Shown here: positions 38,583-44,496 of the stretch, in pieces
How positions within the stretch are numbered: position 1 is the stretch's first letter
Layout: every line of letters starts with the position of its first letter
Origin: Candidatus Latescibacterota bacterium
GTDB lineage: Bacteria; Latescibacterota; UBA2968; UBA8231
DNA length: 64,000 nt
Direction of reading: 5' to 3'
Assembly (NCBI GenBank): GCA_965223905.1
Contig: CBDCXV010000001.1
Location: 544,001-608,000 of the forward strand
The notes under the pieces: generated by a model
The model's input: only the letters and a program-made list of their open reading frames with translations
Databases searched by the model: none
What the model was told of the DNA's origin: nothing
Translations under genes and position numbers: made by a program

Positions 38583-38718
38583 GAGGGCTCCTTTCGTCGG
38601 GGTCCGTGCATCCTGCGTCGGCGCCTGGGCTTTGCACGGCGGTTCCCTTCCGGAACGCGGCCCGTTCCGGGTTTACGTTCCAGCACCTTCGAGATATTCC
38701 AGGCCACGACCCTGCCCG

Positions 38719-39090
38719 CTACTCGTATCTCAGGGCGTCGGCCGGGTTGGTCCGCGCCGCCAGCCAGGTCTGTCCGCTGACCGTGGCCAGGGCGACGGCG
38801 AGGACGCCGGCGCCGGCCAGCGCGAACCATTCCGGGCTCTGGTCGATGCGGTAGGCGTAGAAGGCGAGCCAGCGGTCGAGGACGAAGAAGGCAACGGGCA
38901 AGGCGATGGCGTTGGCGGCCACCACGAGCCATCCGAACTCGCGCGACATCAGCAGCAGGACGCTGCCGGTGGTAGCCCCGAGGACCTTGCGGATGCCGAT
39001 TTCCCGGGTGCGCCGGGCGGCGGCGAGGGCGGCGAGTCCGACGAGTCCCATGCAGGAGATGACCAGGGCGATGGCGCTCGTCCACCTCAT
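38719..39090. repeat. Near-identical 3' ends of permeases P4 and P5 (second copy about 41173-41550)
   Basis: About 370 bp nearly identical by eye; the last ~110 aa are identical in both translations. Confidence 0.9.
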
Positions 39091-41100
39091 GACGGTGCCG
39101 ACGCGCTGTTCTTCCCTGTAACGCCTTGCAAAGGATTCGTCGAGGAAGGTCACGCTGTGTAATTCGAATTCCGGAAGAACACGCTTCCATAACGTCTTCA
39201 CCTCTTCGACCGCCGCGGGCAGGTCGCGGTGGTCGAGTCGGAACAGGGTGTGACCGAACCAATCTCCCAATTTGGGCATAAGCGTCGTTAGAAAAGCCGG
39301 CCCTATGGCATGGCGCATATCCACGAAGTGGAAATCCTCGACTATTCCGATAACCGTCATCGGCTCGCCATCATTCTGGGGAGATGTCAAGGTGCGACCG
39401 ATCAGGTCTTCAGAGCCGAAGAAGCGCGCGGCGGTCTCGTTTAGCAGGACACCGTGCGGCAGATTGGGATCGAAGCCTTGCCCAGAAAGGACCTTGATAC
39501 CCATGACGCTCAGGAAGTTTGGACTCACATAGAAGGGCTTGGCGTGGAGCTCGTTTTCATCGGATTGGATTGGTCTGGGGCCCGGACCGCCAAAGCCGGG
39601 TGCTGCATAGGCACCGGTGACTCCCTGTACAAGTCCCGGTCGGGAATTGATCTCGTTGGCGAGGCGCTCAATCTGCAAAGCATTGAGACCGCCTCTAGCT
39701 AGCACGACCCGGTCGCCGTCGAAGCCCAAATCCTTGGTTTGCATGAAGTCGAGCTGCCGCTCCATGGTGATCGTCACGACGACGAGGACGGCCGACAAAG
39801 CGAACTGCACGACAATCAGACCGCGACCGAGCAGACCGCGACCGGCCTGAGGCGTCTTCCGGGCCAGTGCCCAAACGGGATGGAGCCGCGCAACGACCTG
39901 GGCCGGATACAAGCCCGAGAGTACGCCGACCACCGTGGCAAGGATTAAGGCACCTATCCCCGTCTCGACTGAAAACCACTCGATCTCCAGCTGCTGATGC
40001 ACGACCGCGTTAAACGTCGGAAGCACGGCTTCGGCAAGGCCCATACCAGCGACGATGGCGATCAGGCTTACCACGATTGCTTCGGCGAGAAACTGGTTGG
40101 AAAGCTGGTGGCGCGTCGCGCCGATCGCTTTGCGCACCCCGACTTCCAAGGTTCGCGTCATGGCGCGGCTCATAGCGAGGTTGACGAAATTGATGGCAGC
40201 GATCAGCAGCACGACCGCGGCCAGCCCCGCCAGCAGATAGACATGCTCGACCGTGCCAACACCAAGGCTGGCGGGTCCCGTTATACCAGGTCCCGAGTGA
40301 GCGCCCGCAAAAGGTTGCAACTTCAATCGGTCCCGCACGATCAGGGGCTCCAGCCGCGTTTCCACTTCGGCAGACTCTACCCCCTCTTCGAGTTCAACAA
40401 AAAGCCCGGACACGCCCATGAATTTCAAAGCCTTGGCCGTTCCTGCGGGCACGAGTACGTCCAGCCACAGAATGGTAGGCCCCGGCAGGGGAGCCAGCAC
40501 CCCCGTGACGGTACGTTCCACCTCGATGGGCGTCTCCTTCGGTGGCGACATCGAGTAGTCCCACTCGACGGTGTGCAGCCGGATGCGCTCGCCCACCATG
40601 GCGTGGGCTGGCACCTCGGGGCCGAAGTACTTCCGCGCGGTCTCGTGGGCGAGCACAACGCTCTGCGGATCGTCGAGGGCGGTCGCCGCATCGCCCGCAG
40701 CCAGCGGCAAGGTGAACATGGTGAGAAAGGCCGGATCGACAGCGAGGAAGGACTCACCAAAGTTTGCATCGCCATACGAGACTTGCCCGTATCCCGTCTT
40801 CATGGAAACCGATTCGCGGATGCCGGTGACTTTAGTGCGCACGTCCTCGCGCAGACTGTAACCTGTCATCGTGGAACGGTTGAAGTCGGAACCGGGTTTT
40901 GGCTCTATCAGTTCACGATAGATGACGAATATTCGGTCCCTTTTTTCGTGCCAAGTGTCGAAGGATGTCTCATGGCGCACGAACAGCAGAGACAGGACCG
41001 CCACGGCAAAGGCCGCGGACAGGCCGACGATGTTGATCAGCGAGATCGTCCTGTTGCGTCCCAGCACGCGCAGGGCAATGATCAGGTTGCTCTTCCACAT
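38719..41100 (-). CDS. MacB/FtsX-like duplicated ABC permease (P4)
   Basis: 793 aa; close paralog of P5. Confidence 0.93.
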   Translation of the reverse strand: MWKSNLIIALRVLGRNRTISLINIVGLSAAFAVAVLSLLFVRHETSFDTWHEKRDRIFVIYRELIEPKPGSDFNRSTMTGYSLREDVRTKVTGIRESVSMKTGYGQVSYGDANFGESFLAVDPAFLTMFTLPLAAGDAATALDDPQSVVLAHETARKYFGPEVPAHAMVGERIRLHTVEWDYSMSPPKETPIEVERTVTGVLAPLPGPTILWLDVLVPAGTAKALKFMGVSGLFVELEEGVESAEVETRLEPLIVRDRLKLQPFAGAHSGPGITGPASLGVGTVEHVYLLAGLAAVVLLIAAINFVNLAMSRAMTRTLEVGVRKAIGATRHQLSNQFLAEAIVVSLIAIVAGMGLAEAVLPTFNAVVHQQLEIEWFSVETGIGALILATVVGVLSGLYPAQVVARLHPVWALARKTPQAGRGLLGRGLIVVQFALSAVLVVVTITMERQLDFMQTKDLGFDGDRVVLARGGLNALQIERLANEINSRPGLVQGVTGAYAAPGFGGPGPRPIQSDENELHAKPFYVSPNFLSVMGIKVLSGQGFDPNLPHGVLLNETAARFFGSEDLIGRTLTSPQNDGEPMTVIGIVEDFHFVDMRHAIGPAFLTTLMPKLGDWFGHTLFRLDHRDLPAAVEEVKTLWKRVLPEFELHSVTFLDESFARRYREEQRVGTVMRWTSAIALVISCMGLVGLAALAAARRTREIGIRKVLGATTGSVLLLMSREFGWLVVAANAIALPVAFFVLDRWLAFYAYRIDQSPEWFALAGAGVLAVALATVSGQTWLAARTNPADALRYE

Positions 41101-43737: not shown

Positions 43738-43770
43738 GGTCCGTTCCTTGAGTTCCCCGGTTCGCCGGCT

Positions 43771-44496
43771 TCAGCGCTCCCTGGCGATGTTCTCGGTCAC
43801 GACCCTTCCGTCGAACAGGTGGATGACCCGGTGGGCGAAGTCGGCGTAGGCCGGCGAGTGTGTCACCATCACCACCGTGGTGCCGCTCCGGTTCATCTCG
43901 GTGAGCATCTCCATGACCTCGTCCCCGTGGCGCGAGTCGAGGTTGCCCGTCGGCTCGTCGGCGAGCACCAGCTTCGGCTCGGAGACCAGGGCTCTCGCCA
44001 CCGCCACGCGCTGCTGCTGGCCGCCGGACAACTGCTGCGGAAAGTGCTTGCCGCGGTGGGTGATCTGCATCTGGTCGAGGATCGACCCCACCCGCTCCCT
44101 GCGCTCCCGGCCCGGCAGGCCCATGTAGAGCAGGGGCAGCTCGACGTTCTCGTGGACGGTCAGCTCGTTGATCAGGTTGTAGGACTGGAAGACGAAGCCG
44201 ATCGTCCCCTTGCGCAGGTTCGCCCGCAGGCGCTCGGAGTAGGTGGAGACCTCTTCCTCCAGCAGCCAGTATTCCCCCTTGGTCGGGTTGTCGAGCAGGC
44301 CGAGCAGGTTGAGCAGCGTCGACTTGCCGCAGCCGGACGGCCCCATGATGGCGGCGAACTCCCCGTCGGCGATCTCGAGGTTGACGTTGTCGAGGGCGGT
44401 CGTCTCCACCTCCTCGGTGGTGTAGACCTTGCGCAGCCCCACGGTGCGGATCAGCGCCGTCTTGCCGTTTCCGGTGTTCGCCGCGGTCTCGGTCAT
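43771..44496 (-). CDS. ABC transporter ATP-binding protein (MacB/LolD type)
   Basis: [41 protein letters not shown]. Confidence 0.96.

Follow-up and report, generated by a model that had tools for sequence, protein, structure and literature searches.

Remnants of an ATPase gene end between permease genes of a MacB-like transporter array in Candidatus Latescibacterota

Our analysis of a 64,000-nt stretch of a Candidatus Latescibacterota genome (contig CBDCXV010000001.1, positions 544,001 to 608,000; referred to here as the window) revealed two non-coding recombination scars, R1 and R2, behind the permease genes P5 and P4 of an ABC transporter operon. Each scar copies the last 36-44 nt of the ATPase gene A1, and every MWKSNL-type unit (leader plus permease) is therefore bracketed by direct repeats of the A1 tail. 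We consider it probable that this arrangement goes back to one illegitimate join that duplicated the A1 tail, followed by in-register unequal crossover and gene conversion. Host recombination suffices for these events, and a dedicated enzyme or site is unnecessary. The first-pass annotation of the window had read the same genes as an array growing by cassette insertion at the ATPase 3' end, an interpretation that our results partly support. No new molecular machine is revealed; the mechanism is ordinary and well resolved here, and the scars provide an unusually readable record of how a paralogous transporter array was built and reshuffled in an uncultured phylum.

Organization of the operon

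The stretch of the window that carries the scars is part of a single operon, with the gene order MFP, A1, P5, P4, P3, A2, P2, P1 on the minus strand (Table 1). The start of MFP, giving 450 aa, was picked by comparison with an ORF of genome G002. The top NCBIfam match of A1 was DarD-like, at 263 bits and thus under the cut-off of 375. All five permeases contained the Pfam domains MacB_PCD and FtsX twice each, and for all five TIGR03434 was the top NCBIfam match, with 247-277 bits (under the cut-off of 622.3). P3 belongs to a clade distant from the MWKSNL units, with a path length >2.7 in the permease tree. Matches to a sigma-54 promoter pattern numbered 18 in the window, against 21.6 expected; one of them (45919-45934, minus strand) is sensibly placed but carries a GG mismatch and is a weak hint.

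Table 1. Coordinates of genes, scars and other features of the operon in the window.
Feature	Position	Strand	Basis
MFP, HlyD family, first operon gene, 450 aa	44523..45875	-	Pfam HlyD_3, E 1.2e-10
A1, MacB/LolD-type ABC ATPase, 241 aa	43771..44496	-	Pfam ABC_tran, E 4.9e-35
A1 3' tail (last 12 codons and stop), left direct repeat, template of R1 and R2	43771..43810	-	
Leader between A1 and P5, 33 nt, copied at 41101-41134	43738..43770	-	
P5, duplicated-FtsX permease, 854 aa, MWKSNL clade, subclade A	41173..43737	-	Pfam MacB_PCD and FtsX, two stretches each; tree
R1, A1-tail remnant including stop, immediately 3' of P5 stop	41135..41172	-	
Leader copy ahead of P4	41101..41134	-	
P4, duplicated-FtsX permease, 793 aa, MWKSNL clade, subclade B	38719..41100	-	Pfam
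P4 centre differing between C1 and C11	39084..41010	-	Sliding identity 47-85% per 100 nt vs 97-100% upstream
P4 3' tract homogenised with P5 (partner 41173-41472)	38719..39018	-	Repeat search: 300 nt at 95%
R2, remnant of A1-type tail immediately 3' of P4 stop; core 38693-38716	about 38675..38718	-	
Rest of gap upstream of P3; final ~27 nt, including ribosome-binding motif, match g14 A1-to-P3 gap	38583..38674	-	
P3, permease of another clade, 809 aa	36153..38582	-	Pfam, tree, orthologues
A2, second ABC ATPase, 224 aa	35459..36133	-	Pfam ABC_tran, E 1.3e-34
P2, permease, 822 aa	32988..35456	-	Pfam
P1, permease, 815 aa	30498..32945	-	Pfam

Scars of the ATPase gene end

The gap between P5 and P4 is 72 nt long (41101-41172) and reads RRMTANIARER* straight after the P5 stop, with a copied leader behind it. 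In an alignment to the A1 tail and its leader, R1 and the leader copy are identical in 64 of 77 columns (local score 51). The gap between P4 and P3 comprises 136 nt (38583-38718) and opens with GGCAGGGTCGTGGCCTGGAATATC at 38693-38716. This core of R2 reads GRVVAWNISKVLER and has 19 of 24 positions in common with the A1 tail. Against the last 60 nt of A1 the gap reached a local score of 16, a value that dinucleotide shuffling attained in 4 of 5000 trials and randomly drawn 136-nt genome windows in 6 of 5000. Both scars begin 0 to 1 nt past a permease stop and at the same A1 position, a D|G codon boundary. On this sequence comparison R1 and R2 are confirmed as real remnants, homologous to the A1 3' end.

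The basic observations of the first-pass annotation were thus borne out: a decayed A1-tail copy with leader lies behind the P5 stop, a more divergent copy lies behind the P4 stop (one base away from where it had been placed), and both start at the same codon next to a permease stop. Shuffled sequence had been proposed there as the test of the divergent copy, which proved better than chance, and the reported lack of a recombinase also held, since none of the 77 ORFs in the window matched a transposase or integrase family.

R2 also occurs at the equivalent place in a second locus, on contig C11, and in the same-genus genome G002. The three copies differ from the tail partly at separate positions, and their majority consensus, aligned to the A1 tails, scored 16 to 18 for G000 and G002 (reached in 4 and 1 of 5000 shuffles) and 14 for G001 (31 of 5000). 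Taken one by one, the R2-like flanks of G001 itself do not match the A1 tail significantly (529 and 735 shuffles in 5000 did as well). Past the shared codons R2 exceeds the present tail in length but falls short of the tail of genus g14, with both alignments weak. The likeness of its 3' part to the g14, g18 and own-genus tails is ambiguous, and R2 fits neither the present A1 tail type nor the g14 type clearly. The remainder of the P4-P3 gap showed no likeness to the leader and permease head (scores of 8.5 and 8.0, with 1225 and 1530 of 2000 shuffles doing as well), and its predicted RNA fold is ordinary (z -0.31; 79 of 200 shuffles fold equally well).

A duplication of P5 and P4 by misassembly appears unlikely, because the two proteins share just 71% of their residues and the pair recurs on C11 and in the separate assembly G001.

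The array in related genomes

All genomes compared are MAGs. One MWKSNL unit was present in G002 and two each in G000 C1, G000 C11 and G001, while a second G001 locus contains a collapsed unit with head and tail joined in frame. An R2-like flank follows the units in all of these loci, including the collapsed one, and in G001 it follows MWKSNL 3' ends in several contexts. The order of the permease subclades is A then B in G000 C1, B then A in G001 and A then A in C11; G002 has a single A.

A DNA search with the A1 tail recovered 5'-truncated copies in only three of 76 family genomes; an extra match in G075 lies inside an unrelated gene and was dismissed as chance. Likeness to the A1 tail was absent from all 37 post-stop flanks in nine other loci, where arrays reach up to 8 permeases. 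In G012, a member of another genus, we found an independent scar with 67 nt of A1 plus leader, identical to the A1 end of that genome in 120 of 123 columns. Some of the short contigs from four public metagenome runs, none of which spans the stretch, likewise have a permease end running into the A1 tail (43809 to 41171, 43837 to 41173 and 43800 to 38711); they may come from related organisms. In three cases, namely R2/R1, G012 and the public-run contigs, the junction lies 0-16 nt past a MWKSNL permease stop and leads into the A1 3' end. Three such junctions are not an obvious outcome of random breakpoints, and a preferred site is conceivable.

The boundary between A1 and P3 can be followed into genus g14, whose orthologous locus (HK, RR, MFP, A1, A2) is 76-90% identical. 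A P3-type permease directly follows A1 in 11 of 17 g14 loci examined. These comprise all three loci compared in full, which read HK-RR / MFP-A1, then directly 4-7 P3-type genes and then A2, and eight of the 14 other g14 A1 ends, where the N-terminus of a P3-type protein is encoded behind the A1 stop. Moreover, about 27 nt just before the P3 start of the window match the g14 A1-to-P3 gap. To judge from this gene order, the A1-to-P3 adjacency, documented in this one other genus only, predates the MWKSNL units. P5 and P4 were hence probably added between A1 and P3, and R2 marks the old A1-to-P3 boundary as a displaced or duplicated A1 tail.

Homogenised gene ends and mosaic centres

C1 and C11 are 97-100% identical as far as 41010 and then only 47-85% identical over the centre of P4. 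Synonymous third positions of P5 and P4 are 93% identical in codons 1-30 and 751-810, 87% in codons 811-840 and 33-78% between. At the gene ends (first 90 / last 300 nt) P4 is closer to its paralogue P5 (97% / 96%) than to its orthologue Pa of G001 (91% / 93%). Whole proteins give the opposite picture, with P4 71% identical to P5, 74% to the gene at its position in C11 and 90% to G001 Pa. These identities indicate that gene conversion homogenises R1, the leader and the ends of the genes, and the decay of a scar therefore cannot date its unit. Two warnings for annotation follow: remnant decay cannot be used here to date copies, and near-identical gene ends can mislead both assembly and orthology calls.

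Proposed history and alternative explanations

The history that we favor has four steps, of which the first is inferred and the other three rest on direct comparison of sequences. In an ancestor of this genus, one illegitimate recombination would have put a MWKSNL permease with its leader behind A1 and before the A1-P3 junction. With a breakpoint about 44 nt before the A1 stop, the A1 tail would have been left on both sides of the unit, as in G002 with its one unit and R2. Candidate routes are copy-insertion, a large tandem duplication that reached from the A1 tail as far as a distal MWKSNL gene and was later cut back by deletion, or fusion to a second ATPase gene that a deletion then removed. 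Unequal homologous crossover between the tail copies, or between near-identical gene ends, would then have altered the unit number in register and given R1 with the 5' boundary of R2 and the leader of A1; descent and such crossover between two tail copies would account for the breakpoint that both scars share. Gene conversion keeps the units nearly identical in their leader and over their first ~90 and last ~300 nt, while the unit centres, which encode the periplasmic domains, remain diverged or get swapped. Finally, the entire 14-kb locus was copied to contig C11.

The first-pass annotation differs from this history in several points. Its proposal that units are added at the promoter-proximal A1 boundary, with R2 as a displaced or duplicated tail, agrees with the A1-P3 adjacency in g14, whereas its single fixed insertion point is at odds with the 67-nt breakpoint in G012. 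A repeating unit of leader and MWKSNL permease does lie between the remnants, but P3, as a member of a distant clade, is not an older copy of it. Comparison of the locus across same-genus relatives, which had been suggested as a check, showed an array that is not invariant in unit number (1 or 2) or order. The claim that older units were pushed downstream fails on the opposite orders in G000 C1 and G001, which do not track age, and scar decay is no gauge of age given the homogenisation described above. Cassette growth of the Rhs/CDI kind was not upheld either, given the distance of P3, the varying order, the different scars, or none, in other arrays and the lack of a recombinase among the 77 window ORFs and the 38 ORFs beside the C11 copy.

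An alternative origin of R2 is homology-anchored import similar to that of Rhs/CDI orphans. An incoming A1-like 3' part with leader and MWKSNL permease would recombine inside A1, join illegitimately at its far end and push the resident tail downstream as R2, and repeats of this event would stack units promoter-proximally. Such an import would fit the last five codons of A1 here and in G012 (ARER*/AKER*), which are unlike the endings in g14 and g18 (ERDQEAS*, IQERGL*), as well as the family-wide DNA match to A1, which ends ~14 nt before the stop, the greater length of R2 compared to the present tail, and the leader, which by eye resembles the region upstream of MWKSNL genes in ATPase-less arrays. 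However, a donor locus was not found, R2 is in its first 24 nt no closer to the g14 tail than to the present genus tail, G000 and G001 differ in unit order, and the units are complete genes and not promoterless 3' fragments. As a single event with unequal crossover accounts for all copies, we regard import as unlikely.

It might also be argued that only R1 is a true scar and that R2 is a chance likeness or the native 3' flank of the permease. R2 is short, multiple testing applies since much sequence had been scanned in the first-pass annotation, and the R2-like flanks of G001 are individually non-significant and follow MWKSNL 3' ends in several contexts. Against this stand the few shuffles and genome windows that reached its score, a register and start identical to those of R1, the partly different positions at which the three orthologous copies decayed, and the absence of the same flank from 37 flanks of MWKSNL genes elsewhere. 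An A1 tail is, moreover, exactly what is expected at an old A1-to-P3 boundary, and R2 as a chance likeness or native flank is very improbable. A dedicated site-specific, integron-like system that used the A1 tail as the attachment site for incoming permease cassettes could draw only on the common breakpoint of R1 and R2 and on the three junctions near a permease stop, and is extremely improbable in view of the deviating breakpoint in G012, the lack of an inverted repeat or conserved site seen at the junctions, the rarity of truncated tails (3/76 genomes; 0/37 flanks) and the absence of transposase/integrase Pfam matches among the window ORFs and the 38 ORFs beside the C11 copy.

Comparison with known systems

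Tandem gene arrays evolve by birth and death and by concerted evolution through unequal crossover or gene conversion, and their duplication junctions keep fragments of flanking genes. The present array is similar in that its junctions (R1, R2 and the G012 scar) join the right-end sequence of the unit to its left-flank sequence, in that copy number varies in register among close relatives, and in that gene ends are homogenised, with paralogues closer than orthologues, while centres are mosaic and pseudogenes or collapsed copies occur. Unlike in the usual tandem array, the flanking fragment is here the shared ATPase 3' end, and each unit therefore carries a 36-44-nt direct repeat.

The ADOP family (TIGR03434) has been described as orphan, not located next to an ABC ATPase gene, whereas the permeases of our array adjoin the ABC ATPase genes A1 and A2 in an operon. 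Both consist of proteins of ~800 aa with two MacB_PCD + FtsX halves, and both form large paralogous clusters, which in ADOP are known from Acidobacteria and Psychroflexus torquis. One 42-kb ADOP cluster with ten paralogues is described in PMC3914696. With MacAB tripartite pumps the array shares the joint encoding of an adaptor of the HlyD family, a MacB/LolD-like ATPase and a permease that has the periplasmic core domain of MacB with the FtsX fold. It departs from MacAB in keeping the ATPase on a polypeptide of its own, in having an internally duplicated fusion as permease and in placing several such paralogues in one operon.

The orphan modules of Rhs/CDI loci lack a promoter, and each pairs a 3' fragment of the variable gene with an immunity gene. 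Displaced 3' gene fragments downstream of a variable module and a conserved recombination handle upstream of it are common to those loci (PMC3150448, PMC3967940) and to our array. In contrast to Rhs/CDI, the displaced fragment comes from the neighboring ATPase and not from the variable gene, P5 and P4 are full-length with their own leader, start and ribosome-binding site, and there are no toxin-immunity pairs, small partner genes or ordered stack of older units. In the open-access full text searched, no description of scars of this kind in bacterial permease arrays was found.

The array might even be a selected diversification device of Rhs/CDI-like logic. In such a device, selection would preserve the leader with the first ~30 codons, and the last ~100 codons, of MWKSNL-type permeases unchanged to serve as recombination handles. 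Cassettes for periplasmic domains could then enter or leave the array behind the shared ATPase, or pass between paralogous loci and strains, tuning the substrate range of the ABC exporter and leaving the ATPase tails as footprints. We consider this quite unlikely; if true, selected handles would be relevant to the way in which bacterial MacB-like exporters change their specificity.

Other remnants in related arrays

Junction scars that follow the same logic with other gene fragments were also observed. Related arrays in other genomes lie without an ATPase within up to 10 kb on each side, and remnants of permease tails and heads occur 3' of MWKSNL genes in other genomes. Remnants of the A2 head lie between P3-type genes in G043 and G042, and C11 carries the remnant of a permease head 3' of A2.

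Operon and gene content

The window (C1:544001-608000, in a 7.9-Mb assembly of 11 contigs) encodes a single operon on its minus strand, which runs in the order adaptor (MFP), ATPase A1, permeases P5, P4 and P3, second ATPase A2, and permeases P2 and P1. Each of the five permeases contains two MacB_PCD plus FtsX halves. In NCBIfam they come closest to the ADOP family, with scores of 247-277 bits that stay below its cut-off of 622.3. A one-mismatch match to the sigma-54 -24/-12 pattern was seen at 45919-45934 (minus), ~44 nt upstream of the MFP start and adjoining the divergent sigma-54 activator gene; the pattern showed no enrichment across the window as a whole.

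Genes of the permease operon and its upstream neighbours, in window coordinates
Feature	Position	Strand	Remark
HlyD-family adaptor (MFP)	44523-45875	-	operon member
ABC ATPase A1	43771-44496	-	operon member
Permease P5	41173-43737	-	operon member
Permease P4	38719-41100	-	operon member
Permease P3	36153-38582	-	operon member
Second ATPase A2	35459-36133	-	operon member
Permease P2	32988-35456	-	operon member
Permease P1	30498-32945	-	operon member
Sigma-54 activator	46254-47765	divergent	upstream of operon
Histidine kinase	48125-49558		upstream of operon

Remnants of the ATPase end

The 72-nt gap between P5 and P4 opens immediately past the P5 stop with a duplicate of the final A1 codons, stop codon included (remnant R1), followed by a copy of the 33-nt leader that lies between A1 and P5, and in global alignment 64 of 77 columns are identical to A1 tail plus leader. 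The 136-nt P4-P3 gap carries a second remnant, R2, whose first 24-mer (38693-38716) equals the A1 tail at 19/24 positions. Local alignment reaches 34 nt with a score of 16, which was equalled in 4/5000 dinucleotide shuffles of the gap and in 6/5000 random 136-nt genome windows. Both remnants open 0 to 1 nt past the permease stop and at the same A1 position. ATPase-tail copies behind the P5 and P4 stops, as reported in the first-pass annotation, are thus confirmed by alignment and by their shared start in A1, and R2 does stand out from shuffled sequence; its site was correctly placed there, with positions one base off. The P4-P3 gap also contains a hairpin (38650-38670, minus) with a perfect 8-bp stem and a loop of 5 nt, conserved in part in the two further R2-bearing loci described below, and a fold of the entire gap showed nothing unusual.

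The locus occurs a second time in the same genome, in another genomic context (C11:1647330-1662438; loci L029, L076 and L077), with homology to the window restricted to 35440-49567. This second copy comprises histidine kinase, response regulator, MFP, A1, P5, a gene in the P4 slot, P3 (frameshift-split into 525 plus 269 aa) and A2, and both R1 and R2 are present. G002, of the same genus, has one permease of the P5/P4 type between A1 and P3, a P3 that is 91% identical, and R2 at the equivalent place. Several mismatches to the A1 tail differ in position between the three R2 copies. A majority consensus of the three aligns with the A1 tails of the window's genome and of G002 at scores of 16 to 18, matched by 4/5000 and 1/5000 shuffles, respectively, and with that of G001, also of this genus, at 14 (31/5000). 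Identity among the three copies is 63-80% over the opening 30 nt of the gap and 88-94% over the remaining 106 nt, so that R2 is changing faster than the sequence around it, by decay or by patching. Behind the A2 copy on C11 (1662399-1662537) lies a permease 5' head remnant reading MLRNYLLITLRNLRRQKLYSTINATG, ahead of a different permease (1662538-1664979). Here a head, not a tail, has been displaced, and the remnant marks where the segmental duplication ends.

Origin of the units

A quick IQ-TREE search (LG+G4, SH-aLRT support only) gave a tree of 51 permeases, all full-length and drawn from 15 loci; this length filter removed frameshifted genes. P5 and P4 belong to a 22-gene clade with support of 100, in which every member starts with MWKSNL or MWKTNL. 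P3 and its orthologues form a distant clade (path length >2.7). This rules out P3 as an older copy of the duplicated unit. A neutral 40-nt scar would not outlast that divergence.

The orthologous locus in another genus, g14, is well conserved (histidine kinase 76%, response regulator 80-83%, MFP 82-88%, A1 86-87%, A2 90% identity). Three g14 loci were retrieved in full, and in each of them four to seven P3-type genes come straight after A1, with A2 behind them. Among 14 further A1 ends a P3-type N-terminus comes next in eight, an A2 head in one, another permease type in one and other ORFs in two, and in two a simple ORF rule gave nothing downstream. At L058 (G062, g14) an A2-type start lies 36 nt past the A1 stop, and all permeases between the ATPases appear lost. 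In the window the last ~27 nt ahead of the P3 start match the g14 A1-to-P3 gap and, together with the adjacency in this one other genus, indicate that A1 was formerly contiguous with the P3 gap. MWKSNL-type units (leader plus permease) now separate the two, with R2 exactly at the old boundary, in agreement with the proposed addition of units at the promoter-proximal ATPase end. In g14 itself the MWKSNL genes occur in the same large array, farther along, or in others that show no ATPase within up to 10 kb on either side. In G043 one MFP-A1 pair and one A2 are surrounded by 17 or more permease genes from several clades, seven of them tandem P3-type copies, within ~49 kb (~2847200-2896030; L050, L051, L038).

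Order, breakpoints and gene conversion

The units had been proposed to enter at one fixed point, with older ones pushed downstream. Genomes of the genus, all of them MAGs like the others compared, differ in how many units they have and in what order: G002 has one unit, and the order is subclade A then B in the window, B then A in G001, and A then A on C11. Setting the permease tree against array position thus does not bear out an oldest-downstream order. In G012, from another genus, a separate duplication left a scar that retains 67 nt of A1 plus leader (120/123 columns identical to its own A1 end) and is preceded by ~14 nt of the permease's native flank. This breakpoint pair differs from that of R1/R2, which argues against a single fixed insertion point. 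Unequal crossover of the A1 tail with R2, if that is how R1 formed, would be expected to give R1 and R2 a common 5' boundary, because R1 then inherits the 5' edge of R2 together with the A1 leader. Three junctions join the first 0-16 nt past an MWKSNL stop to the A1 3' end, perhaps because compact operons are selected for or because a site is preferred; contigs of public metagenome runs also contain such junctions, which may stem from related organisms and prove little.

Synonymous third positions of P5 and P4 agree at 93% in codons 1-30 and 751-810 and at 87% in 811-840, against 33-78% in the codons between. The two genes are 97% identical over the first 90 nt and 96% over the last 300 nt (whole proteins 71%), compared with 91% and 93% (whole proteins 90%) between P4 and its G001 orthologue Pa. 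Since paralogue ends are more alike than orthologue ends, gene ends, leader and R1 are kept alike by gene conversion, and remnant decay is not a clock. C1 and C11 are 97-100% identical from ~46300 to 41010, 47-85% across the P4 centre (41010-39084) and 86-100% beyond; a centre was exchanged here, with the ends conserved on both sides.

Route of the first event and known systems

We consider it an even chance that the first event was either a copy-insertion or a large tandem duplication with later deletion. Import anchored by homology, with a new A1 end taking the place of the old one and pushing it aside, is rather unlikely; in its favour, A1 endings in this genus and G012 are unlike those of g14 and another genus, g18, and R2 exceeds the present A1 tail in length, in alignments that are very short. 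Fusion with a second ATPase gene, since lost by deletion, seems similarly improbable, and some other route more doubtful still. Nothing here requires a dedicated, fixed-point, oldest-downstream mechanism; unequal crossover, gene conversion and the junctions left by tandem duplication are all textbook.

For Psychroflexus torquis, PMC3914696 describes ten ADOP-like paralogues clustered within 42 kb. For ATPase-tail scars in such arrays we found no description in open-access full text. Rhs/CDI orphans (PMC3150448, PMC3967940) are alike only in the displaced 3' fragment downstream of a variable module; of the suggested Rhs/CDI-like cassette growth this likeness holds, and the dedicated, ordered mechanism does not. 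The observation is confirmed and its interpretation partly supported, and the locus is a fresh example of already known array evolution, modest in interest.

Other scars and mobile elements

ATPase-tail scars are rare outside this lineage. None of 37 post-stop flanks at nine other loci reached the R2-level score against the A1 tail (maximum 13.5), and a DNA search of 76 family genomes found 5'-truncated A1-tail copies only in the window's genome, G001 and G012; a fourth match, inside an unrelated gene, was due to chance. A2 5' head remnants between two P3-type genes, in the gaps after permeases 2235-4559 of L051 (G043) and 13693-16044 of L053 (G042), are the mirror image of the A1-tail scars. 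Conserved stretches of ~80 nt directly past MWKSNL-type stops at L036, L037, L039, L041, L042 and L032 (G012) read as another permease's C-terminal end, in some loci with a remnant permease head next; they add junction scars from arrays that lack an ATPase.

In G001, P3 is deleted and a P3 3' remnant lies ahead of A2. At the far array end (L030, 18782-19040), behind a frameshifted P1-like head, a degraded MWKSNL-type C-terminal remnant is followed by an R2-like flank and hairpin. The second G001 locus (L055, reverse strand, 3729-3878 of the reversed sequence) has a collapsed MWKSNL gene in which 26 codons of the head run in frame into 22 of the tail, followed by a 40-nt R2-like flank and a different permease.

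The absence of a recombinase from the window was upheld: neither its 77 ORFs outside the array nor 38 ORFs flanking the C11 copy matched a transposase or integrase family. A single mobile element was seen, of IS3 type (HTH_Tnp_1, HTH_21, rve; L021 of G002, ~6036-7191), at the end of the A2 orthologue and followed by a truncated permease.
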